64,000 bases of DNA from Candidatus Bathyarchaeota archaeon. Lineage in GTDB: Archaea > Thermoproteota > Bathyarchaeia > 40CM-2-53-6. Numbering within the stretch: position 1 is the stretch's first letter; the number at the start of each line of letters is the position of its first letter. The position numbers and the translations under genes are program-made. The stretch is from assembly GCA_005888745.1 (NCBI GenBank), contig VBBS01000027.1, positions 55,045-119,044 of the forward strand, in the 5' to 3' direction. Shown piece after piece: positions 41,264 through 61,536 of this stretch. Under the pieces are notes generated by a model that searched no databases, was not told the DNA's origin, and saw only the letters and a list, made by a program, of their open reading frames with translations.

Positions 41264-41956
41264 TTGCTCACCGAGTCGCAGTCAGAGATGCTTGGGATAC
41301 TGTTCGGAGATGGGTCGATGTCTGAGAATCACAACTCCGTTCAGATCGTCATAACCGGTCACAAATTCGATGACGTAGAGTACCTAATTGGCCGCGTAGG
41401 TCCGATGTTCGCGGAACTCTTTGAAATGCCCCTCAAGGTACATCTAGTGAAAGATGAAAATACGATGATCCTCTACGCTTACTCCAAACGAATTGCCCTG
41501 ACCCTTCACGAATGGGGAATGCCTTTTGGCCGAAAAAAACTGGCCTGGCTCACACCGCACGTCGCATTGGATGAAGTATCTTTCGTCAGAGGCTTATTCG
41601 ACACAGATGGCTGTGTCTATCGCAAGTATGGCCCTTATTTGCAAATCCAGTTTAAGTTCGCTTCCCTTTCGCTCCTTGAGTACGCGAGGGAGTGTCTGGT
41701 AAGACTCGGCCTGAATCCCACATCGATCAGGTGCGACGATACGAAGTTCAGGTTCTATCTCAGCAGACAAGCCGAGGTAGACCATTTCTTTAGGGTCGTA
41801 GAACCCAAGAACCCAAAGCATCTTAATCGTTTCCAAAATGCTTCTCGGAATCGGTCCTACCGCCCATACACACATCGTCCTGAAGCACTCAGAAGAATTG
41901 GAAACCAACCAAGCCTTATAGGACCAATTCTGTGGAAAACACACTCGGTGGGGTAA
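41264..41956 (+). CDS. free-standing LAGLIDADG homing endonuclease (double-motif)
   Basis: Two motifs: MLGILFGDGS and VRGLFDTDGC. It ends 27 nt upstream of the tRNA-Trp gene. Confidence 0.8.
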   Translation: MLTESQSEMLGILFGDGSMSENHNSVQIVITGHKFDDVEYLIGRVGPMFAELFEMPLKVHLVKDENTMILYAYSKRIALTLHEWGMPFGRKKLAWLTPHVALDEVSFVRGLFDTDGCVYRKYGPYLQIQFKFASLSLLEYARECLVRLGLNPTSIRCDDTKFRFYLSRQAEVDHFFRVVEPKNPKHLNRFQNASRNRSYRPYTHRPEALRRIGNQPSLIGPILWKTHSVG

Positions 41957-41983: not shown

Positions 41984-42164
41984 GGGGCCGTAGTCTAGCC
42001 AGACCCACTCCGGGTCCTAGTAAGGGACGACGACGGGCTCCAGAATCTATGAAACATGCACACCGACCAATATCGAGGGATGAGGAAATTCGGGAGCGCG
42101 TGAAGATACCCGTAGACGAGGGACTCGGCGGATGTCGTGGGTTCAAATCCCACCGGCCCCACCA
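41984..42164 (+). tRNA. tRNA-Trp (anticodon CCA) interrupted by three putative introns; CCA end encoded
   Basis: Acceptor GGGGCCG (41984-90) pairs with CGGCCCC (42154-60). The T arm is GTGGG-TTCAAAT-CCCAC. The anticodon arm is ACGGG (42033-37), loop CTCCAGA, and CCCGT (42109-13). A cloverleaf results only if about 22 nt (D-loop, ~42001-42022), 64 nt (37/38, 42044-42107) and 18 nt (45/46, 42116-42133) are removed. Confidence 0.75.
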
Positions 42165-43170: not shown

Positions 43171-43665
43171 TTGAGTAGGCCTTCAAAGCAGGTAAGCACT
43201 TCCAAGACCACTCTCTCCAGTCAGATGATGCCTGTGGACGCCAATCCGATGGGAAACGTGCACGGGGGCACAATTCTCAAACTTGTCGATGTCGCCGCCG
43301 GAGTCACGGCCCTGCGACATGCGAGAACTATTGTGGTCACCGCAAGCATCGACCGTATGGACTTTTACCATCCAGTCTATGTCGGCAACCTTCTCAACTT
43401 CAAGGCCTCAGTCAACTACGCTGGAACAACCTCGATGGAAGTCGGAGTAAGGATAGAAGCTGAGGACCTGAAGACTGGTAGAATAACACACACCGGCTCA
43501 TCCTACCTCACCTATGTTGCTATAGATGAGAACGGACAACCAGTCGAGATTCCCGACGTCATCCCGGAGACACTTGACGAAAAACGACGCTGGAGAGAAG
43601 GAAAAAAGCGAAGGGCCGAACGCCTCAAGATCCTACAAGATCGAAGGAGCAAGGGCAAGGCCTAG
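43171..43665 (+). CDS. acyl-CoA thioesterase (hotdog fold, YciA/ACOT-like)
   Basis: ANPMGNVHGGTILKLVD...TASIDRMDF..PV.VG....A.V.Y.G.TSMEVGV. Confidence 0.8.
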   Translation: MSRPSKQVSTSKTTLSSQMMPVDANPMGNVHGGTILKLVDVAAGVTALRHARTIVVTASIDRMDFYHPVYVGNLLNFKASVNYAGTTSMEVGVRIEAEDLKTGRITHTGSSYLTYVAIDENGQPVEIPDVIPETLDEKRRWREGKKRRAERLKILQDRRSKGKA

Positions 43666-43677
43666 GGTCGACAAAGA

Positions 43678-44562
43678 ACGAAAGTCGCAATTGTAGGGTT
43701 CGGCATGATGGGCCGGCAGATAGCCCAAGTATTCGCCCAAAATGGCCACGAGGTCGAGGCCACGGATGAGGATCAGCAAGCACTGAAGGCGGGGCTCAAC
43801 GAAATAGCAGACGGGCCCTACGGATTGCACGCGGCTGTTTCAAAAGGAAAACTGGCTGCAGAGCAAGCTCACAGGACTCTAGCAGCCATCAAGACAAGAC
43901 CCGAGCTAGCGGATGTTTGCAAGAACTCGACTCTTGTGATCGAGGCAGCCTTCGAGGAGCTGCAACTCAAACAGAATCTGTTTCACAGAATTGAATCTGC
44001 TGCGCCACCAACTGCGATCATAGCATCAAACACTTCAACCTTGAGCCTGGACAAGATCACCCAAAGAATCTCAAGGAAGGACAGAACGATTGGAATGCAC
44101 TTCTTTAATCCAGCCCAGCTCACAAAACTCGTCGAGATCGTCCGAGGAACGTCGACATCACCTGAAACACTAGAGAAAGCGTCCCAAATCGTCCGGGAGA
44201 TCGGTAAGACCCCTATCCTCGCCCAAGATGAGCCTGGTTTCATCGCCAACCGTCTCGGACTCACCCTCTACATGGAGGCTTCAAGACTGCTAGAGGATCG
44301 TGTCGCAAGTCTCTCTGACATCGACACGTGCATGAGACTCGGATACAACCATCCAATGGGACCCTTCGAACTAGCCGACTTCGTCGGACTTGACACCAGA
44401 CTTCGGAATCTAGAATCACTCTACAAGTCAACGAATGAAAGTAAATGGATACCACCTCAGATTCTAAGAGAGATGGTCCAACAAGGATACCTCGGCGACC
44501 CTGCTAGAAAGAAGACGAGCAAGGGCGGATACTACGAGTATCTCCGGATAAAGCGAGGATAA
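43678..44562 (+). CDS. 3-hydroxyacyl-CoA (3-hydroxybutyryl-CoA) dehydrogenase
   Basis: The HADH family core is present (NTSTLSL, HFFNPA). The Rossmann beta1-GxGxxG element KVAIVGFGMMG starts upstream of the first ATG (43705). ACG 43678 directly precedes KVAIVG. Confidence 0.85.
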   Translation, partial: TKVAIVGFGMMGRQIAQVFAQNGHEVEATDEDQQALKAGLNEIADGPYGLHAAVSKGKLAAEQAHRTLAAIKTRPELADVCKNSTLVIEAAFEELQLKQNLFHRIESAAPPTAIIASNTSTLSLDKITQRISRKDRTIGMHFFNPAQLTKLVEIVRGTSTSPETLEKASQIVREIGKTPILAQDEPGFIANRLGLTLYMEASRLLEDRVASLSDIDTCMRLGYNHPMGPFELADFVGLDTRLRNLESLYKSTNESKWIPPQILREMVQQGYLGDPARKKTSKGGYYEYLRIKRG

Positions 44563-44611
44563 GAAAATCCCAACCCTTTATACAGAACATAAGCCGTGTC
44601 AACTCCACTGG

Positions 44612-45016
44612 TTGTTATTTGGTGTGTTAACTTCGTTCGTCTCCAGCCGTTACCTTCGAAGTATGACTCTTCACATGTTAGGCGGTCGTCGCATGAACCT
44701 GTCACGTTGGGATGAGGGGGATGACTCCGATCAGGTGACGGGTCAGAAATGGGATAGCCGGTTGGCTGGCCACCGTAAAATCCTTGCTTGGCAATCGGCC
44801 AAGTTACCACGCTATGGGCGTGAGGGGGCGGTTGAGGTTCGACCGTTCCCTGCCAAAAAGAGACTACATGTCTCTGAGGCGCAAGGGCTCGCAGGTGAAG
44901 CAGTGAAGAGGAACCCGCCGACGACGGTAATCCTCCGAGCAGATGAGAGCAAGTCTAGTCCCCCAGCAACGGAAGACTCGACAGAACCCAGAACACAACC
45001 CACAAACCATCGATGA
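44612..45016 (+). other. unassigned segment: either a 134-codon ORF of no recognisable family or a structured RNA
   Basis: The ORF is open across the whole HADH-ECH gap and stops 3 nt before the ECH start. The same segment has complementary GT-rich 5' (44610-28) and AC-rich 3' (44992-45008) ends plus several local hairpins. Confidence 0.25.
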
Positions 45017-45019
45017 TGA

Positions 45020-45793
45020 TTGCTGTACACACACATTCTAGTTGAGACTGAGCCGCCTATCGGAATCATCCGACTGAACCGTCCGAAAGCTCTCAACGCC
45101 CTCAACTTCGAACTTATCCAAGAAACAGTGGAGGCACTCGAAGGCTTCGACAAAGACGACAGGATCAAAGCGACGATCTTGACAGGGGGAGACGACGCCT
45201 TCTCTGCTGGAGCAGACATCAAGGAACTAGCGGAAGCGACTCCTGTCACCTTGATCGAGGAGAACAAGTTCGCCCTCTGGGATCGCTTGAAGAAGATCGC
45301 AAAGCCGATCATAGGAGCGGTCAGCGGCTACATCTACGGAGGAGGATGCGAACTGGCAATGAATTGCGATATCATCATTGCATCCGAGACCGCACGATTC
45401 GCACAGCCTGAAATCAACATCGGAATAATGCCCGGAGCTGGCGGGACACAGCGTCTCACAAGAACCATCGGAAAGTATAGGACAATGGAGATGGTTCTAA
45501 CCGGACAACCCATGACCGCGCGAGAGATGGAGAAACACGGTCTCGTCAACAGAATCGTCCCCGTCGAGGCCTACTTCGATGAGGCACGCAAACTCGCCAT
45601 GCAAATCGCCCAGAAAGCCCCCATAGCCACACGGCTAGCGAAAGAGGCGGTGCTGAAAGCTCTCGACACACCGCTCGAGGAAGGGCTACAATTCGAGAGG
45701 AAGAATTTCTACCTCCTCTTCTCAACAGAGGACATGAAAGAGGGAATGAAAGCCTTCACGGAAAAACGGCCCCCCAGATTCAAAGGACGATAG
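45020..45793 (+). CDS. enoyl-CoA hydratase (crotonase family)
   Basis: ITLNRP-type start (IIRLNRPKALNAL), FSAGADI, GGGCELAM and the active-site Glu regions. Confidence 0.85.
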   Translation: MLYTHILVETEPPIGIIRLNRPKALNALNFELIQETVEALEGFDKDDRIKATILTGGDDAFSAGADIKELAEATPVTLIEENKFALWDRLKKIAKPIIGAVSGYIYGGGCELAMNCDIIIASETARFAQPEINIGIMPGAGGTQRLTRTIGKYRTMEMVLTGQPMTAREMEKHGLVNRIVPVEAYFDEARKLAMQIAQKAPIATRLAKEAVLKALDTPLEEGLQFERKNFYLLFSTEDMKEGMKAFTEKRPPRFKGR

Positions 45794-45796
45794 TTC

Positions 45797-46591
45797 TTGG
45801 CACCTGAAACACTCATCGTCGAAGAACACGACCACATCACAAAGATCACACTGAACAGGCCGAGCGCCCTAAATGCGATAAACGACAAGATGGGCGAAGA
45901 ACTACTCGCGACTCTCAAAGAGACAGAGAAGAGCGACACTACCAGATGTCTTGTCATAACAGGGGCAGGAAGAGCTTTCTCAGCAGGAGAAGACATATCA
46001 GCTCTGAAAGACCGCTCTGGGACAGGAGACCATCCCTCACTCGGGGATCATCTCCGGAAGAAGTATCATCCAATCATAACCCGGATCCGAAACATCGAGA
46101 AACCAGTAATCGCCCGTCTGAACGGCATAGCAGCCGGAAGCGGGGCAAGCTTGGCCCTCGCCTGCGACATCCGAGTAGCCTCAGAGGAGGCGGGCCTCAA
46201 ACAGGCCTTCATCGGGGTAGGCTTGATACCGGATTCTGGAAGCAGCTACTTCCTAACACGAATGATCGGTCCCGGAAGGGCCCTCGAACTCATCATGACA
46301 GGAAAAACAATACCAGCGAAAGAAGCTGAACAACTTGGCCTCATCAACAAAGTCGTCCCCGCCGCCGAGCTTGACAAGCATACAGACGAGCTTGCCCATC
46401 AGCTCGCAACCGGCCCGACCAAAGCACTAGGACTCTCCAAGCGAATCGTGAACAAAGTCATAAGCCTCGAACTTCCAGAAGCCCTGGAGTATGAAGCCTA
46501 CAACCAGGACATCGCTGGACGAACCAGCGACCATCTAGAAGCCGTCAAAGCCTTTCTAGAAAAACGACAGCCGAAGTTCTTAGGGAAATGA
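45797..46591 (+). CDS. enoyl-CoA hydratase/isomerase family protein (second paralogue)
   Basis: ITLNRPSALNA, FSAGEDI, AAGSGASLALACD. Confidence 0.8.
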   Translation: MAPETLIVEEHDHITKITLNRPSALNAINDKMGEELLATLKETEKSDTTRCLVITGAGRAFSAGEDISALKDRSGTGDHPSLGDHLRKKYHPIITRIRNIEKPVIARLNGIAAGSGASLALACDIRVASEEAGLKQAFIGVGLIPDSGSSYFLTRMIGPGRALELIMTGKTIPAKEAEQLGLINKVVPAAELDKHTDELAHQLATGPTKALGLSKRIVNKVISLELPEALEYEAYNQDIAGRTSDHLEAVKAFLEKRQPKFLGK

Positions 46592-46658
46592 GACACGGTG
46601 TGTTTTCCAGGTTTCACGTTTAAGTAACAAGCTCCTCAATCGCGAGAGTTGAATAACC

Positions 46659-47660
46659 GTGCCGGGAAGGAACAAGAAACGGCCGAAATTGGACCTCAAC
46701 ATCTTCCCCGGAAACTGGACTGTCACGAATGACCGGATGTTCAAGGCCTTCGACCTGTCCTTCGCCCAGAACTGGAACCCTGCTACTTTTCCTTGGGATG
46801 AACTTGACCAGAAGAATTTCGACTCGAAGGAGAGAATAGCGCAAGCCTACTGGATGTCCAAACTGGCTCTCTTCGAGAAATCTGGAATTGGAGCCTTCGG
46901 CTTTGGGGCCGTAAGAGCCGCAGAACTGAACATGGAAGACCCCACGAAGAAGATGCTTGCCTCCATCACATACGATGAATGCCGGCATGACGAAGTCTGC
47001 CGAAGAGCCTGCGACAAGCTCTGTCCCAACTGGCCATACGGATACAAGCCACAATCAGATTTCGAATCAAGGGCCCTCCGAAACATCAAGGCACTCTACG
47101 ATGACGGCAGACGCTACTGGGAAGGATTCCTAAAGGCGTGGGAATATTTGCCGCCTGAGATTCTGTTCGCTGGCTTCTTTTTTGCGGAAATAGGCGCAGA
47201 AACGATCTTCAACGCGATGCGCCAGACCAGCAAACTCGGAATCTACCAACAAACCTTCCGAAATATTACACGAGACGAGACTCGCCATCTCGTTGCGACA
47301 ATGGCCCTGCTCCGGGCCATGGCCGAGAAGTTCTCGGAGGAACAGAAGATGACTATTACCCGGCAGATGAAGCAGGGCTTCATCTTTCTCTCACCCCTCC
47401 TCTACCAGCACAAGCCCGAGTTCTGGCATCTCCCCGCAGACTTTGACAAGGTCGACCAGGAGATGGAGGAAGCGGCCAGGGACGCGGGACTGGGAGTGCT
47501 CACCCTTGAAGAGAAGGTGAAGTTCTGGAAGGAAGCGATTGAGAAGAAACGGTCCGAGATAGAAGAGATGGGAATCAAGGTACCCGCCATCCCAGAGCTG
47601 GGAGTTGAGGGCGAAGAGGTTCAGGTTAAGAAGAACGAGACTATAGCCACGAGCTTCTAG
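46659..47660 (+). CDS. ferritin-like diiron-carboxylate protein (R2/PaaA-like oxygenase scaffold)
   Basis: Two E...ExxH pairs: LFEKSG ... YDECRHD and FAEIGAE ... RDETRHL. Confidence 0.55.
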   Translation: MPGRNKKRPKLDLNIFPGNWTVTNDRMFKAFDLSFAQNWNPATFPWDELDQKNFDSKERIAQAYWMSKLALFEKSGIGAFGFGAVRAAELNMEDPTKKMLASITYDECRHDEVCRRACDKLCPNWPYGYKPQSDFESRALRNIKALYDDGRRYWEGFLKAWEYLPPEILFAGFFFAEIGAETIFNAMRQTSKLGIYQQTFRNITRDETRHLVATMALLRAMAEKFSEEQKMTITRQMKQGFIFLSPLLYQHKPEFWHLPADFDKVDQEMEEAARDAGLGVLTLEEKVKFWKEAIEKKRSEIEEMGIKVPAIPELGVEGEEVQVKKNETIATSF

Positions 47661-47667
47661 GAAGTGG

Positions 47668-47985
47668 TTGAAGATCACGAAGATCATAGTCCTGTTCGGA
47701 CAACCGAAAGACCCCGAACTATTCGATGAGCAATACTGGAAAGACCATGTTCCAATAGCGAAGGCGATGCCAGGTTTGAAGAAATACACAGTTCACAAGA
47801 TCGTTGGGGCACCACGAGGAGAACCGGCATACTACCAGGTTGTCGAACTGGAATTCGAGAATATGGACAGCCTGAAGAAAGCATTGGAAAGCCCGGCCGG
47901 ACGCGAATCAGGCCGGCACGGCGTAAAGATTGCTACTGGTGGCATAACTTTCCTTTACGCGGAATCAAGAGAAGCGATGCCGTAG
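47668..47985 (+). CDS. EthD-domain protein (TIGR02118-like)
   Basis: 105 aa: KIIVLFGQPKDPELFDEQYW..HVPIAKAMPGLKKYTV. Confidence 0.6.
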   Translation: MKITKIIVLFGQPKDPELFDEQYWKDHVPIAKAMPGLKKYTVHKIVGAPRGEPAYYQVVELEFENMDSLKKALESPAGRESGRHGVKIATGGITFLYAESREAMP

Positions 47986-48077
47986 AACAACAACAGTCTA
48001 GCCCGGTTCCATCTGACATATTCCTCGGAAAACGTTCTTCTAATCAGACCCGTCAGTTCTAGGACAGGAGCGGGGAA

Positions 48078-49235
48078 GTCTTAGGCCGCATCGGAATCGT
48101 TGGAGTTGGACATTCAAAGTTCGGAAAAAGGAGCGACGCCTCCCTCCGAGAGCTAGCATTCGAAGCGTACAGTTCCGCCCTAGATGACGCCGACATCGAC
48201 TCTTCAAAAATAGACGGTTCAATAGTTTGCTCCGCCACTCACTACGACAAGCAACGATCGCCTGCAGGTGTTGTTGCGGAATATCTCGGACTCAATCCCC
48301 AACCAACATTCAACGTTGAGGCAGCCTGCGCCTCCAGCGCTGTTGGCCTTCGGACCGCGTGGGCGCTTGTCTCATCAAAACTTCATGATGTGGTGGCCGT
48401 TGTGGGGGTGCAGAAGATGACCGAACTCTCCTCGGAGGAGATCCAGGAGCTCATGGGCAGAGCAGGGGACGTCATGTGGGAGTCTCCCTTCGGAACAACA
48501 ATGCCCGCATACTACGCCTCCTATGCTAACGCCCACATGGCCAAGTACGGAACTACAGAGGAACAAATGGCGCTCGTGTCGGTGAAGAACCGAAAATACG
48601 GATCCAAGAATCCTAACGCCATGTTTCAAAAACCCATCCAATTGGAAGAGGTCCTAAAATCGCGAATGGTATCTTATCCTCTAAAACTATACGATTGCTG
48701 CGCCAATGCTGACGGGGCGGCATGTCTGCTCATTACTAGTGCCGAAAAAGCAAAGAAAATTTCTGATAGACCCGTATGGATCTCCGGGCTTGGCCTGGCT
48801 TCGAGTCCCATGTCGCTTGCTGGAAGAAAAGGTCCATTGACGAGTTTCGATGCCACAAGAAATGCGGCGAGAACGGCATACGAAATGGCCAATATCAAAC
48901 CACACGACGTACATGTGGCGGAGGTTCATGACTCTTTCTCGGTAACAGAAATCATCAATTATGAAGACCTCGGATTCGCACGACCTGGAAGGGGTGCTAA
49001 GCTTCTGGAAAACCAAGGCACGGAGCTCGGCGGGAGAATCCCCGTCAACATCGACGGAGGCTTGATTTCCAAAGGCCATCCAGTCGGAGCCACAGGCGCG
49101 TCCCAGATCTTCGCATTGGTCAAACAACTACGGGGGGAAGCGGGTAGCGTTCAGGTCGACGGCGCTAAGATTGGTCTCGCACAGAACATAGGGGGAATAG
49201 GAATGTACTGCTCCGTTACGATCTTGCGCTCATGA
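48078..49235 (+). CDS. thiolase (SCP-x / archaeal acetyl-CoA C-acetyltransferase type); start codon unresolved
   Basis: The frame is open from 48063. The N-terminus RIGIVGVGHSKFGKR and the catalytic-Cys region NVEAACASS lie upstream of the first canonical start (GTG 48390). The C-terminal GHPVGATGA is also present. The start given is approximate (GTC 48078, TTA 48081 or ATC 48090). Confidence 0.85.
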   Translation, partial: VLGRIGIVGVGHSKFGKRSDASLRELAFEAYSSALDDADIDSSKIDGSIVCSATHYDKQRSPAGVVAEYLGLNPQPTFNVEAACASSAVGLRTAWALVSSKLHDVVAVVGVQKMTELSSEEIQELMGRAGDVMWESPFGTTMPAYYASYANAHMAKYGTTEEQMALVSVKNRKYGSKNPNAMFQKPIQLEEVLKSRMVSYPLKLYDCCANADGAACLLITSAEKAKKISDRPVWISGLGLASSPMSLAGRKGPLTSFDATRNAARTAYEMANIKPHDVHVAEVHDSFSVTEIINYEDLGFARPGRGAKLLENQGTELGGRIPVNIDGGLISKGHPVGATGASQIFALVKQLRGEAGSVQVDGAKIGLAQNIGGIGMYCSVTILRS

Positions 49236-49281
49236 GTACATTCTCCAAGCTCTATGACGAAAAGCGAGGGCGAATCTAGGA

Positions 49282-50208
49282 TTGCAGGTGGACATTCAAG
49301 AGTTGACCCCCATTCAAAGCTTCGGCAGAAGAATTCGAGCCTATGATAAAGCCACACGCCTCGCAAAGGAAGGTCGCCCTGTCACTGAAATCTCGAAAGA
49401 GACGGGAACGCCTGACGCTACCATCAGGGGATGGCTCGTAAACGGTCGAAAACCTTGGACCCGCTGCGAACTCTTCAAACCAACGTACTCTGATCAATTA
49501 ACATATGTTATCGGTGTTTACATGGGAGACGGCTCGATTTCCCGATGGAGAAATCGTTTTTTACTGCGATTAGATGTCAAAGACAAAGAATTCGCCGATA
49601 AGTTTTCTTCAACATGCGCACATGTTCTGGGTAGGAAACCATATTCTGTGAGGCATGTCAGGGATAGGGACACATACGAGACTATCATTTCAAACGCGTC
49701 TTTCTGCAAGTTCCTCAACCGAGGCCTCACCCACCTGGATCGGTATGTACGGGAGCATCCCTCTGGCTTTGTTAGAGGTTTAGCTGATAGCGATGAGTGC
49801 CCCACTGTGACAACAACAAAAAAGCGGGGCAAACCCTGGTTCTTCGTCCAAGTTGTAGTAGCAACATCCAAGAGCATACGCTTACTGAGCTATACTCGGA
49901 CGATCCTGAGGGAATGCCTCGGACTCAAAGCGACGCTAGTGTACAAAGGCAAGCCAAGACCCAGTGTGTTCAAGAACAAGTTGCTCCGTTCAAGAAAGAG
50001 GGTCTTTGACCTTAGGATATCGCGCTTTGGTGACGTGAAACGATTCTCCCGGGTTGTTGGTTTCGAATTGGCTCGGAAACAAGAGAAGCTTGCCGCTGCT
50101 ATCTTCGTCCGTGAAGGATTTGGTTCTGGTCAGGATGCGGTGAAAGAGTGGACCCGTCGCTGGGAGCATGGCACCACTGAGTGGATTCTCAAGAAAGGAG
50201 TGGACTAG
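49282..50208 (+). CDS. LAGLIDADG homing-endonuclease-like protein with N-terminal HTH
   Basis: Motifs YVIGVYMGDGS and FVRGLADSDEC. The N-terminal EGRPVTEISKETGTPDATIRGWL is HTH-like. It sits between the thiolase and DUF35 genes. Confidence 0.7.
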   Translation: MQVDIQELTPIQSFGRRIRAYDKATRLAKEGRPVTEISKETGTPDATIRGWLVNGRKPWTRCELFKPTYSDQLTYVIGVYMGDGSISRWRNRFLLRLDVKDKEFADKFSSTCAHVLGRKPYSVRHVRDRDTYETIISNASFCKFLNRGLTHLDRYVREHPSGFVRGLADSDECPTVTTTKKRGKPWFFVQVVVATSKSIRLLSYTRTILRECLGLKATLVYKGKPRPSVFKNKLLRSRKRVFDLRISRFGDVKRFSRVVGFELARKQEKLAAAIFVREGFGSGQDAVKEWTRRWEHGTTEWILKKGVD

Positions 50209-50212
50209 GCAA

Positions 50213-50620
50213 TTGGGTTTTGAAAAGTTCGGGAGATTTGGTTATGTCTCCCAGACCAAGATCAACCCCTTGTTATCCTATCTGGAAAAGGGGCAGATTG
50301 CCGCGACCAAGTGCAAGAAGTGCGGGAGAACGTACTTTCCACCAAGAGCCGAGTGCCTGGACTGCCGCCACAGTACGATAGAATGGGTTGTAGTGGACGG
50401 GAGGAGCAAACTGATCACATTCACCCAGGTTTTCTTCGCACCACCCGCCTTTCAGCACGAAACCCCGTACATGCTAGGACTTGCGGAACTCACGAATGGG
50501 CTTCGCGTATTCGCGCCTGTCAGTCCTGCAGTGGAAAAGGAGCAACTCAAACCGGGCGTCGAGCTGACCTTGAAGGTTGCAAAAGGCTCACGTGACAACT
50601 TGTACTACTGGCTCGAATGA
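50213..50620 (+). CDS. DUF35 OB-fold/zinc-ribbon protein (thiolase partner)
   Basis: CKKCGRTYFPPRAECLDC zinc ribbon followed by an OB fold. TTG 50213 lies 5 nt after the endonuclease stop. The track ATG 50168 would overlap that gene. Confidence 0.8.
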   Translation: MGFEKFGRFGYVSQTKINPLLSYLEKGQIAATKCKKCGRTYFPPRAECLDCRHSTIEWVVVDGRSKLITFTQVFFAPPAFQHETPYMLGLAELTNGLRVFAPVSPAVEKEQLKPGVELTLKVAKGSRDNLYYWLE

Positions 50621-56956: not shown

Positions 56957-57025
56957 AGGAACGCTCTTTTATAGCCTCACCAGGTTTGGATTGCGGACTT
57001 GACAGTTCAAATTCAGAAATACAAA

Positions 57026-58431
57026 ATGCTGATCGGGGGAGAGTGGAAGGACAGCGCAAATGGCGCTGTTTCATCAGTTCTTGATCCTTCAAACAACGTA
57101 CAAGACAGGACGCGAAAGCTGCAGTCGTGAGTGCGAAGATCGCGCTGGAGTCGGCCGGCTGGGTCGACATTGATCCCAGCAAGAGAGGGCGTCTCCTAAC
57201 TAAGCTCACAACTCTGGTCAGGGAGAATTCAGAGCAGCTGGCAAAGCTTGAAACCATGAGTGAGGGGAAGACTCTCCGAGAGTCTAAGGGTGATGTTGCC
57301 TGGGCGGCCAGGGCGTTCGAGTACTGGGCAGGACTGGCGGACAAGGTTGAAGGAGAAACCATACCTGTTCCGCCGAGACGTCTGAACTACACTCTTCGTG
57401 AGCCGCTAGGCGTAACGGTCCATATTGTTCCTTGGAATTATCCGATCGCGCTTGCTGCTAGAAGTTTGGCACCGGCAATTGCAGCAGGGAATACTGTTGT
57501 CGTGAAACCGTCTGAGATTACTCCTCTTACAGCGATTATGCTGGGAGATCTAGCGCTTAAGGCCGGCATCCCCAAAGGTGTTATCAACGTTGTAACTGGA
57601 TCAGGTGCTGAAGTAGGCGAAGCACTTGTGTCGGACCCGCGAGTGGACGGGATAGTTTTCACAGGGTCCGCTGAGACAGGAACGCAGGTGATGGAGTCAG
57701 CCGCGAAAAATGTTACAAGGGTACTTCTGGAGTTAGGCGGTAAGAACCCGCATATTGTCTTCCCTGACGCCGACTTGGCGAAGGCCGCTAAGAGCGTGAA
57801 GGAAGGCATTTTCACCAATGCTGGACAAATGTGCTGGGCCGGATCTAGGGCATTCATTCACGAGAGCATATACGATGATTTCGTAAAGGACCTCGTCGCC
57901 AAGACCCGAGCGATAAAGGTCGGGCCTGGAAGAGATGATACCAGCGAGATGGGACCCTTAGCCTCAAAGGCTCGGCAAGACGTGGTTCTCGGGTTTGTCA
58001 AGGACGGCCTCGAAGAAGGGGCAAGTCTTCTCTGCGGGGGGAAGAAACCATCTGACCCAGGACTGCAGAAGGGAAATTTCGTCGAGCCCACCATTTTCGA
58101 GAACGTCAACGGGAAGATGAAAATCGGGTGCGACGAGATTTTCGGACCTGTTCTGGGCCTTACCCAGTTCAAGACTCTCGACGAGGTTGTTGCTATGGCC
58201 AATGAGACAGATTATGGACTATACGGGGGAGTCTGGACGAGCAATTTGAAAGTCGCTCATGAACTCGCTGTTCGTCTCCAGGTCGGTGGACTAGCCGTGA
58301 ACGAGTATTTGGTGACCTTTCCGCAGACCCCGTTCGGCGGCTACAAGGACAGCGGAATAGGACATGAAAACGGCATACGCTCGTTAGAATTCTACACACG
58401 AACCAAGAATGTCTCGATAAACCTTTCCTAG
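57026..58431 (+). CDS. NAD(P)-dependent aldehyde dehydrogenase, N-terminus frameshifted
   Basis: The ELGGKNP and GQMCWAGSR catalytic motifs lie in the main ORF (57127..58431). The family N-terminus MLIGGEWKDS...LDPS is in another frame starting at ATG 57026. Confidence 0.8.
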
Positions 58432-58767: not shown

Positions 58768-59694
58768 CTAGGTAAGCTCGTCCAGCAACGGCGTAATATC
58801 ACGGTTGTAAATATCCTGCTCGACAAAGGGCTTTTCTTTCAGGGCGGGCATTCGAAGAGCCAGCTGGTCCTCGAAGGTAGGAACCTCCATCTTGAAGAAA
58901 ACCCCGATCGGTATCTTGTCGCCCCACTCGAAAGACTTCACCAGGGCATTTCCCTTCTTTGTGTTAACCTCGTCCGTCGTGGGATCGGCAACCGTACCAT
59001 TGTACCCTGAATCCTCCAGCTTGTAGAGCCTCGGTGCCTTGACCGGAAGATCTTCGCCACCATACCATTCTTTCGTGTTGATGTCGTTATAGGTCGGGCA
59101 TGTTTGCAGAACATCTACGAACGCGCTTCCCCGATGTTCTATTGCCGCTCGAAGGGTTTGCTTCAAGTGGCGAACGTCAAGAGCATAACTCCGCGCAACG
59201 AACGTATAGCCCGAAGCGACTGCCATAGCGATCGGATTCACACGCTCAATGATCGCGGGGGCAGGCATCGATTTCGTTTTCACACCCTTCGGCAGGGTCG
59301 GAGATGCCTGACCTTTTGTCAAGCCGTAGACTCCATTATCGTAGAGCACGTATGTGAAATCCAGGTTCCTTCGACCAGTATTGACGAAGTGGCCTGCTCC
59401 TATTCCCAGTCCGTCTCCGTCGCCACCAACAGCGACAACGGTCAGTCCTGGGTTAGAAAGACGGGCACCAGTAGCGATTGGAAGGACACGGCCATGGAGA
59501 GTATGGAACCCGTACGCGTTAACAAAATGAGGTGTCTTGCCTGAGCATCCGATTCCCGAGAAGATCGCGACCCTGTGGGGTTCAAGCTGCATTTCTAGAA
59601 GGGTCATCTGAATCGCGTTGACGATTCCGAAGTCTCCGCAACCAGGGCACCAGTCGTTGTGAACCTGTGTCCGGTAGGTCTTTAGCTCAAGCAT
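58768..59694 (-). CDS. 2-oxoacid:ferredoxin oxidoreductase beta subunit (TPP-binding)
   Basis: WCPGCGDFG and GGDGDGLGIG motifs. Confidence 0.9.
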   Translation of the reverse strand: MLELKTYRTQVHNDWCPGCGDFGIVNAIQMTLLEMQLEPHRVAIFSGIGCSGKTPHFVNAYGFHTLHGRVLPIATGARLSNPGLTVVAVGGDGDGLGIGAGHFVNTGRRNLDFTYVLYDNGVYGLTKGQASPTLPKGVKTKSMPAPAIIERVNPIAMAVASGYTFVARSYALDVRHLKQTLRAAIEHRGSAFVDVLQTCPTYNDINTKEWYGGEDLPVKAPRLYKLEDSGYNGTVADPTTDEVNTKKGNALVKSFEWGDKIPIGVFFKMEVPTFEDQLALRMPALKEKPFVEQDIYNRDITPLLDELT

Positions 59695-60121
59695 GAGATA
59701 CGGTTACCTCTTTGATTCCGTTCTTTATTATGTCTTTGACACCCTCGTAGATTTCGTTCTGGGAAAACGGTCTTCCGTCGAACTTTACAATAGTATTGTC
59801 CATTGCAATACCGGTTTTCTCACGGATCAACCCTGCCATCTGTGCGGAGTAATTGTTTTCGATCGCGATCTTCCGCCGGGCCGAACCAAGTGCCTGCTGA
59901 ACGAAGCTTGTTGGGAACGGGCTAACGTATCGCACCTGTAGAAAGTTTGTTTCTATCCCGTCGCTCTTGAGGTCTTCCATGCCGTCGAGTATCGCTCCCT
60001 TCGATGACCCCCAGCCAACGAGTGTAATCAGAGCCGATGTTGGTCCGTGCAAGGTTGCCTTCTTTGAGTCCGGTATTACTTGTCCAGCAAGCTCGATCTT
60101 TCTCATTCTCTTCCTCATCAT
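59687..60121 (-). CDS. 2-oxoacid:ferredoxin oxidoreductase alpha subunit, C-terminal part (separated by a frame break)
   Basis: In its frame this ORF continues upstream as ...GGIFWTTGDEHDEYGHITEAPDIRIKMMRKRM, the conserved alpha-subunit segment. Confidence 0.8.
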   Translation of the reverse strand: MMRKRMRKIELAGQVIPDSKKATLHGPTSALITLVGWGSSKGAILDGMEDLKSDGIETNFLQVRYVSPFPTSFVQQALGSARRKIAIENNYSAQMAGLIREKTGIAMDNTIVKFDGRPFSQNEIYEGVKDIIKNGIKEVTVSHA

Positions 60122-61536
60122 CTTGATCCGGATATCCGGCGCCTCCGTGATATGACCATACTCGTCATGCTCATCTCCAGTTGTCCAGAAGATCCCCCCT
60201 TTCTGACCAGGAATTGCTCGGGGGGAAATTCCCAGTTCTGTCCAACGGTAGCGTCGATGCTTATGGCGAGATCTGATTCTCGAACCAAGTCTCCCCGATC
60301 GACCTTCAGGTTGTCGCCGTTGAAAGGAGGAATATCTTGGTAGGTGCTCGCCAGGAACTTGTCGGTCAGAAGTATGACGGGCACTTGGTAGCGTTCCGCG
60401 TAGTTGAACGCGTCGAACGTGTCGTAGTAAGTTTCGACCACATCTCCGGGTGCAATAATTATCCGAGGAAATTCTCCATGGGCAGCGTGAAGAGCAAATC
60501 TTAGGTCTGCTTGCTCCGTCCGAGTCGGCAGCCCAGTTGCAGGACCTGCCCGCTGATATAGCACGACAACTGGTCCAGGGGCTTCAGTTATCCCGGCCCA
60601 CCCCAAGCCTTCGGCCATAAGAGAAAAGCCCGGTCCAGATGTAGAGGTAGAAGATCTGAGACCAGCGTGAGCCGCACCGGTGGCCATGTTGATCGCGGAA
60701 ATCTCGTCCTCTGCTTGTACGACTATCATATTGTAGTCCTTCTGGTGGGACTCCAAGTACTCGCTCTCGTCCGTTGCTGGTGTAATGGGATAGTAGGTTT
60801 GGAATCCACATCCGGCCTTGAGTTTCGCGATAGCCACGGCTTGTACACCTCTGATCATCATTCGCTTTCCAGACAGCGGTTGCTTTCGCAGCTTTATCGG
60901 AAACGCATCTTCGCCGAAACCCGCCTTTGCATAATCGTATCCGCGTTTCGCGGCGCTGACGTTTAGGTCGCCGAGAGCTGCCTTGCGTCCGGTGAACCCT
61001 TCTCTAATGGCCTCGGTTGCGAGGTCAAAGTCGTAATCGGCGAGGCCAAGGGAAGCCCCTAGAGCAATCGTGTTGACCATAACCTGGTACTTGCTCAGTT
61101 CCTTGTCCTTTCCAAACTCCTTCAGCGCCTCGACAAGGAGATCCATGTAGGGGATCGGAAAGAGTTTGATATCATCACGCCCGAAAGAGTCAGGTGACAG
61201 GTTCAAGCTGCGATCGTAGATTATTCCACCTCCAGGGCTGACCTCGTGTCTATGCCCTCGATGGGTAGGACGAAGCTTGTTCATGTCGCCGAAGATTGTT
61301 TCCCGGTCGAGGGCTACGAGTAAGTCTACCCAGTCCACGTGGGATCTGGGCGCCTTTGACTCTACTCTGAGCCTGTAGTAGCTATGTTCGCCCTTGATGT
61401 TGGAGTGATACTCGATGTTGGCAAATATGTGAAGTCCTCCACGAATGCATGCTTTTGCAAAGTTCTCTGCAACCGAGTTGATCCCGCTGCCTTGAGGACC
61501 GCCTATCATCCAGGTGAAACTGTTGGTTACTGTCAA
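60118..61536 (-). CDS. 2-oxoacid:ferredoxin oxidoreductase alpha subunit (gamma-alpha fusion type), N-terminal part
   Basis: N-terminal IGGPQGSGINS (gamma-like domain) followed by YPITPATDE (alpha). The last ~20 codons look out of frame. Confidence 0.85.
   Translation of the reverse strand: MTVTNSFTWMIGGPQGSGINSVAENFAKACIRGGLHIFANIEYHSNIKGEHSYYRLRVESKAPRSHVDWVDLLVALDRETIFGDMNKLRPTHRGHRHEVSPGGGIIYDRSLNLSPDSFGRDDIKLFPIPYMDLLVEALKEFGKDKELSKYQVMVNTIALGASLGLADYDFDLATEAIREGFTGRKAALGDLNVSAAKRGYDYAKAGFGEDAFPIKLRKQPLSGKRMMIRGVQAVAIAKLKAGCGFQTYYPITPATDESEYLESHQKDYNMIVVQAEDEISAINMATGAAHAGLRSSTSTSGPGFSLMAEGLGWAGITEAPGPVVVLYQRAGPATGLPTRTEQADLRFALHAAHGEFPRIIIAPGDVVETYYDTFDAFNYAERYQVPVILLTDKFLASTYQDIPPFNGDNLKVDRGDLVRESDLAISIDATVGQNWEFPPEQFLVRKGGSSGQLEMSMTSMVISRRRRISGSR

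Follow-up and report, generated by a model that had tools for sequence, protein, structure and literature searches.

A predicted family of R2-type dimetal-carboxylate proteins recurring beside genes of coenzyme A-ester metabolism in soil Bathyarchaeia

What could a large ferritin-like metalloprotein be doing among genes of the β-oxidation type, in an archaeon belonging to a group, the soil Bathyarchaeia, usually regarded as anaerobes? The question is raised by a 64,000-nt stretch of a Candidatus Bathyarchaeota archaeon (contig VBBS01000027.1, positions 55,045 to 119,044; hereafter the window), whose plus strand carries between 43171 and 50620 a gene cluster for enzymes acting on coenzyme A (CoA) esters and, within it, a gene for a 333-aa orphan-family protein (46659..47660, +). 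The initial annotation took this protein for a diiron-carboxylate enzyme, paired it with the EthD-family protein encoded next to it, and suggested an uncharacterised oxygen-dependent step in the degradation of an acyl-CoA or aromatic CoA substrate. Judged from its predicted structure and its ligand motifs, the diiron protein (as we shall continue to call it) represents a small family without a name, made up of R2-type, that is, large ferritin-like, dimetal-carboxylate proteins, predicted to be oxidases, and lies outside all the named families.

The pattern on which the initial annotation relied, an E..ExxH motif occurring twice, is real: the predicted ligands are E73, E107/H110, E177 and E207/H210, and in an alignment of 48 homologues all of them are invariant except E107, which at least 90% of the sequences keep. 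Likewise invariant are D106, D206 and R209, together with four cysteines (C108, C114, C118 and C122). In the predicted model (pLDDT 88.8) the ligands sit on four long helices (residues 56-89, 94-121, 174-190 and 194-222), and both features of the ferritin-like (R2-type) dimetal-carboxylate superfamily, the four-helix ligand core and the fold similarity to solved members, are found in it. Direct assignment by sequence was tried and abandoned: the protein matches no Pfam or NCBIfam family, and searches of Pfam, NCBIfam and PDB, whether with the single sequence or with the 48-sequence profile, returned nothing significant.

When the predicted model is compared with solved folds, the highest score is that of a VlmB homologue (6d9f, 19.4), followed by R2lox (4hr0, 17.8), the R2 subunit of ribonucleotide reductase (RNR R2, 17.6), the aldehyde-deformylating oxygenase (17.0), soluble methane monooxygenase (sMMO) and phenol hydroxylase (16.0), PaaC (15.4), PaaA (15.2), AurF (15.0), acyl-ACP (acyl carrier protein) desaturase (14.3) and BoxB (14.0), and only at about 10 by symerythrin, Dps and bacterioferritin. 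This ranking would therefore place the protein with the catalytic, O2-activating R2-type enzymes and not with ferritins or rubrerythrins, and the grouping with non-catalytic proteins that the initial annotation had named as fatal to its proposal is not what is seen, such folds ranking lowest. A ferritin- or rubrerythrin-like protein devoted to iron storage, peroxide reduction or O2 scavenging could still be read from a weak Pfam Rubrerythrin match (17.8 bits), from PDB rubrerythrin matches at E 0.19, and from the fact that some sources, such as the automatic label of the Joint Genome Institute (JGI), so name the homologues; however, the Pfam score lies under the cut-off of 22.8, neither PF02915 nor the ferritin models are matched, and an extended R2-type architecture of 333 aa takes the place of the compact bundle (some 140 aa in rubrerythrins, about 140-190 aa across the rubrerythrin, ferritin and Dps proteins), with no rubredoxin domain. 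Together with the fold ranking, these points make a non-catalytic or detoxifying role very improbable.

As regards the named catalytic families, the placement among R2-like, PaaA, BoxB and AurF proteins that had been proposed as a check gave a divided result, the fold being nearest to the VlmB/R2lox type but no named family accepting the protein by sequence. It does not match PF00268 (Ribonuc_red_sm, the model of R2lox and RNR R2), for which a distant relative, P0262, reaches 30.5 bits, under the 33.6 cut-off, and a PDB profile search brought up NrdB at just E 0.55. Nor does it match PF11583 (AurF/CmlI). In AurF and CmlI the second ExxH is preceded, at a distance of four residues, by a third His ligand; the window protein has none there, its segment reading N202-I203-T204-R205-D206-E207, with Ile at 203 in a position that is not conserved. 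Neither a PaaA/PaaC hidden Markov model (HMM) match, PF05138 included, nor adjacent paaB, paaC, paaD and paaE genes were found, and the same is true of a BoxB HMM match and of the neighbouring BoxA reductase and BoxC lyase of BoxAB systems. The absence of partner subunits that the initial annotation had remarked on holds: genes for PaaB/C/D/E, BoxA or other oxygenase partners do not occur within 10 kb, and neither the 50 window open reading frames (ORFs) scanned nor the annotated relatives yielded an acyl-CoA dehydrogenase (ACAD), a CoA ligase, a reductase or a partner subunit of an oxygenase.

The family is also very rare. In 5.8 billion clustered proteins only 175 homologues appear, all of them archaeal and named "hypothetical" or automatically "rubrerythrin", with identities of 58-98% in Bathyarchaeia and about 55% in Nitrososphaerales and Conexivisphaerales; identities of 95-98% are those with proteins of "Candidatus Bathyarchaeota" metagenome-assembled genomes from meadow soil, and the window comes from a soil lineage of Bathyarchaeia. 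When 1.84 billion representative proteins were searched with a profile, only 184 matched at E <=0.001, and neither R2, nor the desaturases, nor any other large family was drawn in. There is a handful of full-length distant relatives (20-36% identity) that keep the ligands and not the cysteines, and two of them, P0121 (32.1 bits) and P0130 (33.3 bits), just pass the PF11583 AurF cut-off of 29.6. The ratio of nonsynonymous to synonymous substitution (dN/dS) of the diiron gene, 0.014-0.024, is the lowest or equal-lowest of the cluster genes in each comparison.

As to the cysteines, C108 lies inside the first ExxH, and C114, C118 and C122 follow on the same helix at i, i+4 and i+8 (window 46980-47024). 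An Fe-S or Zn site was considered and rejected, on account of this one-helix spacing and of the distant relatives, which partly keep C114 only; a redox or radical relay and the lining of a substrate channel are the possibilities that we would consider for these residues. A further conserved segment, NIFPGNW, is found near the N-terminus.

If sequence and fold leave the protein outside every named family, its surroundings offer a second line of evidence. At 80 genome loci and several metagenome loci the ORFs were clustered, and the loci were dereplicated at 90% identity of the diiron protein into 31 groups, which fall into three clades. In clade A, that of the window (74-98% identity, 8 groups), the order is hotdog-fold thioesterase (4HBT), 3-hydroxyacyl-CoA dehydrogenase (HADH), two enoyl-CoA hydratase/isomerase-family genes (ECH), diiron protein, EthD, thiolase and DUF35, and it is seen in 6 to 8 of the 8 groups, contigs that are cut short accounting for the rest; the next gene, on the opposite strand, codes in most groups for an aldehyde dehydrogenase (ALDH). 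This arrangement exceeds chance. In clade B (Bathyarchaeia, 58-61%, 7 groups) the order is a different one, with thiolase, DUF35, further genes, a short-chain dehydrogenase/reductase (SDR) and the diiron gene, on which two ECH genes converge, and with EthD and 4HBT within 3 kb at one locus at least. ACAD was not found in the clusters of either clade. In clade C (Nitrososphaerota, 54-56%, 16 groups) three groups show two ECH genes and a GNAT gene that diverge from the diiron gene, joined by a thiolase gene in L002. Among the distant relatives, P0121, discussed below, has crotonase-fold neighbours, and the bacterial P0128 (26% identical) is followed by TetR, SnoaL, a MaoC dehydratase, ECH and an FAD oxidase; P0122, P0125, P0127 and P0130 were set aside as evidence, their contexts being uninformative or their contigs too short. 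Crotonase-fold partners thus recur in five lineage contexts (clade A, clade B, 3 of the 16 Nitrososphaerota groups, P0121 and P0128) and in differing orders, and this speaks for a functional connection with CoA thioesters.

The two crotonase-fold proteins of the window give this link more content. ECH1 (45020..45793, +; PF00378, 273.5 bits) is an enoyl-CoA hydratase of PaaF-like type, whose translation keeps both motifs with the catalytic Glu of crotonases, GGGCELAM and QPEINIG; its NCBIfam scores for PRK05862 (331.7) and PaaF (309.3) are both under the cut-offs, and its dN/dS is 0.02-0.06. ECH2 (45797..46591, +) is a PaaG-type enoyl-CoA isomerase, a homologue of Delta3,Delta2-enoyl-CoA and 1,2-epoxyphenylacetyl-CoA isomerases. 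At the positions of the two hydratase Glu ECH2 has an S and an A, both Glu being thereby lost. The top NCBIfam match of ECH2 is TIGR02280 PaaG (251.4 bits; the equivalog cut-off of 345.15 is not reached), and its nearest PDB entries are 2ej5 of Geobacillus, four PaaG entries of T. thermophilus (6sl9, 6slb and 3hrx among them) and E. coli PaaG, 4fzw_C. In the alignment with 6sl9, D146 of ECH2 (GLIPDSG) pairs with the Asp of PaaG (GLVPDSG), that is, with Asp136 of the Thermus enzyme, its catalytic residue (PMC7497051), so that ECH2 shows the two marks of PaaG, the catalytic Asp and the loss of both hydratase Glu. A menaquinone pathway, with MenB and a thioesterase, was also considered and rejected: ECH1 and ECH2 match enoyl-CoA hydratase and PaaF/PaaG-type proteins, and naphthoate synthase is absent from the best 25 matches of each.

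On these grounds we tentatively suggest, as a possibility that falls short of being probable, that the diiron protein is a single-subunit O2-dependent dimetal oxidase that hydroxylates or desaturates a CoA-linked or fatty-acyl chain and feeds a β-oxidation-type route. The protein would bind two metals (Fe/Fe or Mn/Fe) through E73, E107-x2-H110, E177 and E207-x2-H210, and would activate O2 with electrons from an unlinked generic ferredoxin or reductase; the chain to be hydroxylated or desaturated could be that of a fatty acyl or of another CoA-linked acid, in the way proposed for R2lox. The product would bear a misplaced double bond or an oxygen function, which the PaaG-type isomerase ECH2 and the crotonase ECH1 might turn into a 3-hydroxyacyl-CoA, to be oxidised by HADH and cleaved by the thiolase/DUF35 pair; the hotdog thioesterase would free CoA when intermediates build up, and EthD would be an accessory barrel protein confined to certain lineages, which may isomerise a reactive product or otherwise handle it. 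We favour such an oxidation of acyl chains because fatty chains are what the nearest structural relatives bind or act on, without requiring partners of their own, because ACAD is missing from the cluster, and because there is a precedent in the R2loxI of Geobacillus (PMC10867098).

This precedent deserves some attention. R2lox proteins have an Mn/Fe cofactor, a Tyr-Val ether cross-link and a co-purifying fatty-acid ligand. The window protein resembles them (GkR2loxI of Geobacillus kaustophilus, PDB 4HR0; Rv0233 of M. tuberculosis) in the E/ExxH/E/ExxH pattern, in consisting of a single subunit and in having no dedicated partner genes, and differs in that sequence identity is just 14-17% and that profile searches connect neither family to the other; besides, R2lox is not known to share the four invariant cysteines of the second ligand helix, or the NIFPGNW segment. 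Its genes are also neighbours of β-oxidation genes: the cluster of Geobacillus R2loxI (PDB 4HR0) comprises genes for an alcohol dehydrogenase (ADH), ALDH, a ligase, ECH, ACAD, HADH and thiolase, and an alkane or fatty-chain monooxygenase has been proposed for it (PMC10867098); its physiological function is equally unsettled. An R2-type oxidase beside β-oxidation genes is, then, an arrangement already known; what is new is the family itself, the ladder of cysteines, the restriction to Thermoproteota-related archaea and a few bacteria, and the double context, of CoA esters on the one hand and of haem-copper oxidases on the other.

Other single-subunit enzymes offer partial parallels. The soluble acyl-ACP desaturases and the cyanobacterial aldehyde-deformylating oxygenase are single-subunit diiron proteins whose substrates are fatty-acyl chains and whose reductant is ferredoxin; the acyl-ACP desaturases carry a D-E-x-R-H motif twice, and so does the window protein (DECRH and DETRH), but it has no PF03405 match and no ACP or alkane-biosynthesis context. 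The AurF/CmlI/VlmB-type diiron oxygenases (PF11583) are likewise single-subunit, and it is their threshold that P0121 and P0130 pass; they differ in serving the biosynthesis of arylamine or hydrazine natural products, whereas the context here is CoA-ester catabolism.

If an O2-dependent oxidase of CoA-linked acids is indeed what these genes encode, soil archaea that are abundant but uncultured (Bathyarchaeia and deep-branching Nitrososphaerota) would have an enzyme family new to science, and the carbon turnover of these Bathyarchaeia would draw on molecular oxygen as co-substrate. What R2lox-like proteins do has been a question ever since the first description of R2lox, and the present family, whose genomic context is clear, is a second system in which to study it. 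The family, being small and highly conserved, and having a confident predicted structure, is tractable for expression, metal analysis, ligand identification and substrate screening.

Several observations weigh against a role in acyl-CoA oxidation, and principally those from the Nitrososphaerota. In 9 of the 16 groups of clade C the genes within 5 kb of the diiron gene are those of COX2, COX1/3, COX4 and cupredoxin, and no CoA-ester gene is nearby; in most of these nine the diiron gene comes immediately after the oxidase genes and is read in their direction, whereas the gene behind it, for an MFS transporter, is read in the other. Loci linked in this way to haem-copper oxidases include L092 (5951-10987), L038, L040, L044, L047, L050 and L059; in L092 the diiron gene lies 45 nt downstream of the oxidase genes, on the same strand; the gap between the cupredoxin and diiron genes is 45 nt in CP066694, a complete genome. 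The CoA pathway is therefore no obligate partner of the diiron protein. To this must be added that the contexts of the distant relatives P0122, P0125 and P0029 are uninformative, and that a gene order kept within one archaeal order may be inherited and not functional. The linkage to CoA-ester enzymes that the initial annotation had described is conserved across lineages but is not universal, most Nitrososphaerota groups having the gene elsewhere.

These same loci give rise to another explanation, in which the protein would perform oxygen-linked housekeeping unrelated to the CoA pathway, for instance by altering a lipid, a quinone or a cofactor that aerobic respiration requires, or by assisting the terminal oxidase, and the adjacency of β-oxidation genes in Bathyarchaeia would be an inherited gene order or the result of shared O2-responsive regulation. 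The very high conservation between the proteins of Nitrososphaerota and Bathyarchaeia (about 55% identity, 68% mean column identity) would suit such a core function. However, the crotonase-fold neighbours recur in five contexts and in differing orders, with bacterial and thermophile relatives included; the family is far too rare for a general respiratory accessory; and the order conserved among related Nitrososphaerota may itself be inherited. For these reasons we regard the housekeeping explanation as unlikely.

A different possibility, in keeping with the Paa/Box-like idea of the initial annotation, is suggested by the PaaG-type isomerase, namely that the diiron protein attacks not a chain but a ring, as an aryl-CoA ring oxygenase that would be the single-subunit functional analogue of the PaaABCE or BoxAB epoxidase. 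ECH2 would then isomerise the reactive epoxide or oxepin product, ALDH would oxidise the ring-opened aldehyde, and ECH1, HADH, thiolase and the hotdog protein would have the roles of PaaF, PaaH, PaaJ and PaaI. PaaA and BoxB are, like the window protein, diiron-carboxylate proteins, and act on CoA thioesters; behind their genes come those of PaaG/PaaF-type crotonases, HADH, thiolase and hotdog thioesterase, a set that matches that of the window, and the paaF, G, H, I and J genes, as described in PMC9493321, are mirrored in it, with ALDH adjacent in most relatives of clade A. The ECH2 evidence, with the solved PaaG structures as nearest relatives and the catalytic Asp kept, is of the same sign, and archaeal paa pathways have been reported to be incomplete, lacking full epoxidase modules (PMC13186573). 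A context of this kind is that of P0121 (36% identical, from a JGI metagenome): at about 1 kb it has genes for a genuine IorA (TIGR03336, 653.6 bits), IorB, a PaaF-like ECH, a PaaG-like ECH and a PaaK-family ligase (362 bits).

Nevertheless, IorAB and a PaaK-like ligase form by themselves a common archaeal unit, which takes from the force of that example, and most Nitrososphaerota copies have no such context. The window family has no PF05138 or BoxB match, its fold similarity to PaaA and BoxB is weaker, and PaaB/C/D/E and BoxA/BoxC are not nearby. The accessory enzymes are not of Paa type either. The hotdog thioesterase (43171..43665, +; PF03061, 70.7 bits; dN/dS 0.05-0.09) is closest to the YciA type and not to PaaI, its top NCBIfam match being YciA (54.9 bits) against 18.5 bits for PaaI; and ALDH (56965..58431, +; PF00171, 543.6 bits), which was considered as an equivalent of PaaZ, PaaN or BoxD and rejected as such, has as top matches betaine-aldehyde and phenylacetaldehyde dehydrogenase types (generic, BADH/StyD-like), all under cut-off. 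Finally, the Bathyarchaeia clusters are without PaaK and without an oxepin-CoA hydrolase, whether MaoC-type or as a third ECH. An aryl-CoA ring oxygenase is thus doubtful for this locus, and it is unlikely that the family is in general a single-polypeptide archaeal replacement for PaaABCE/BoxAB, attacking the aryl-CoA ring with O2 and passing the epoxide to the PaaG-type isomerase. If it were, soil Bathyarchaeia and some non-ammonia-oxidising Nitrososphaerota would gain an O2-dependent "hybrid" degradation of aromatics that is invisible to the current marker-gene surveys, based on PaaA/PaaC.

The association of ALDH with the cluster is itself only possible: it adjoins DUF35 in L013, L014, L016, L019 and L020 and is 6.5 kb away in the window, where, compared with the intact 485-aa gene of L088, it is frameshifted N-terminally near 57060-57075, which makes it either a pseudogene or the product of an assembly error.

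The EthD-family protein (47668..47985, +), a small α+β barrel whose gene begins 7 nt 3′ of the diiron gene, had been paired with the diiron protein in the initial annotation. Its family membership is clear (PF07110, 30 bits against a cut-off of 22; TIGR02118, 69 bits against 30.5), its nearest solved structure is 2ftr (BH0200), and olivetolic acid cyclase is a weak match. The two, though, do not form a conserved unit: EthD is adjacent in 8/8 groups of clade A, was found near the gene in only 1/7 of clade B, and is found in 0/16 of the Nitrososphaerota groups, so that the pairing is lineage-specific.

With regard to the cluster as a whole, ORF listing and HMM scans agree with the initial annotation that the named genes all lie on the plus strand, in the order that it gave. 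Its gene identities and order stand, then, and what it missed or misstated are an unlisted LAGLIDADG ORF, a transposon-like element, and the starts of HADH, thiolase and DUF35. The gene arrangement is the same in three independently assembled contigs, with an identical diiron protein, and all the cluster genes are under purifying selection (dN/dS 0.014-0.17), which is why we consider the cluster to be functional and not decaying.

The starts require some explanation. HADH (43678..44562, +; PF02737 and PF00725) has a frame open from 43666 that encodes KVAIVGFGMMG, the motif of the Rossmann fold, and a protein begun at the first canonical codon, the ATG of 43705, would be without the Rossmann β1 strand and without the glycines with which the nucleotide-binding motif opens; the position that aligns with the ATG of relatives is ACG in the window (43678), as it is in L006, L041, L032, L010 and L005, and this ACG is the probable start. 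The archaeal-type thiolase (48081..49235, +; NF004720, 465.8 bits, cut-off 420) has a frame without a stop from 48063 onwards, whose upstream part encodes RIGIVGVGHSKFG and the region of the active-site Cys, after which falls the first canonical start, GTG at 48390; the aligned start codon is TTA (48081) in the window and ATG, TTG or CTG in relatives, and the 107 codons upstream of 48390 have a dN/dS of 0.026-0.037. The upstream codons of both genes are identical in the three assemblies. All this suggests, as far as can be read from the sequences, near-cognate initiation of HADH and thiolase, or re-initiation after an upstream stop codon.

Three other accounts of these starts were rejected. 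Read-through of a TAG could fuse the hotdog protein with HADH, the two being in frame in the window, but L006, L032 and L005 have the same ACG and a different hotdog frame. General recoding of TAG was discarded too, since it is a TAG that terminates EthD and the hotdog protein, both of normal length. Pseudogenisation of HADH and thiolase agrees neither with the dN/dS of the upstream thiolase codons, nor with that of the tested cluster genes, all below 0.2, nor with the agreement of the three assemblies. DUF35, the usual partner of archaeal thiolases, which consists here of a ChsH2-type zinc ribbon (zf-ChsH2, PF12172) and an OB fold (OB_ChsH2_C, PF01796), had been given a start at 50168; it is now placed at the TTG of 50213 (50213..50620, +), which aligns with relatives and with the gene calls of L087-L089.

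Between HADH and ECH1, what had been left as an unassigned segment is in fact a discrete insertion of about 395 bp (44591..44988), a mobile element with the features of a miniature inverted-repeat transposable element (MITE), a kind of non-autonomous DNA transposon. Relatives whose cluster has some 80-89% DNA identity are without it; at least 120 metagenome contigs, many of them from JGI soil samples, contain its 23-nt core motif, often near their ends; and 20 full-length copies, 77-85% identical, have common ends, terminal inverted repeats of 17-22 nt and 8-nt flanking duplications, the inverted repeat of the termini being (GGCAC)TGTCAACTCTTCGGTTG ... CAACCGAAGACTTGACA(GAACC). The longest ORFs of the copies are inconsistent (75-130 aa), the segment has no Pfam or Rfam match, and a structured RNA was rejected on this last ground and on fold z-scores of just -1.3 to -1.6. 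Copies are also present in L020 (Bathyarchaeia) and L051 (Thaumarchaeota). In the window the element sits in an otherwise tightly packed operon.

A second insertion (49236..50212, +) fills exactly the short spacer between thiolase and DUF35, and contains a free-standing gene of 308 aa (ORF 49282-50208) with LAGLIDADG_3 (PF14528, 34.4 bits against a cut-off of 22.5) and helix-turn-helix (HTH) domains. The window, L010, L012 and L015 have it, and L004, L005, L007, L008 and L032 do not; its dN/dS of 0.17 against L010 suggests a gene that is still functional, predicted to be of the homing-endonuclease type. Several Nitrososphaerota loci have ORFs similar to it ahead of their COX operon (as at 4758-5639 of L048), and the window has another ORF of LAGLIDADG type at 41264-41956, directly upstream of a tRNA-like gene (41984-42164). 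This tRNA-like gene scores 36.8 bits (E 6e-12) in the tRNA/tmRNA clan of Rfam, with its 3′ CCA encoded and with one or more long introns; ARAGORN by default reports no tRNA in the whole window and, when introns are allowed, a doubtful tRNA-Trp at 42011-42164. On the minus strand, at 59687-61536, the gene of the alpha/gamma subunit of a 2-oxoacid:ferredoxin oxidoreductase appears to be divided into two ORFs (472 aa and 144 aa) that overlap by 4 nt, and in L001 it is a single gene of 616 aa.

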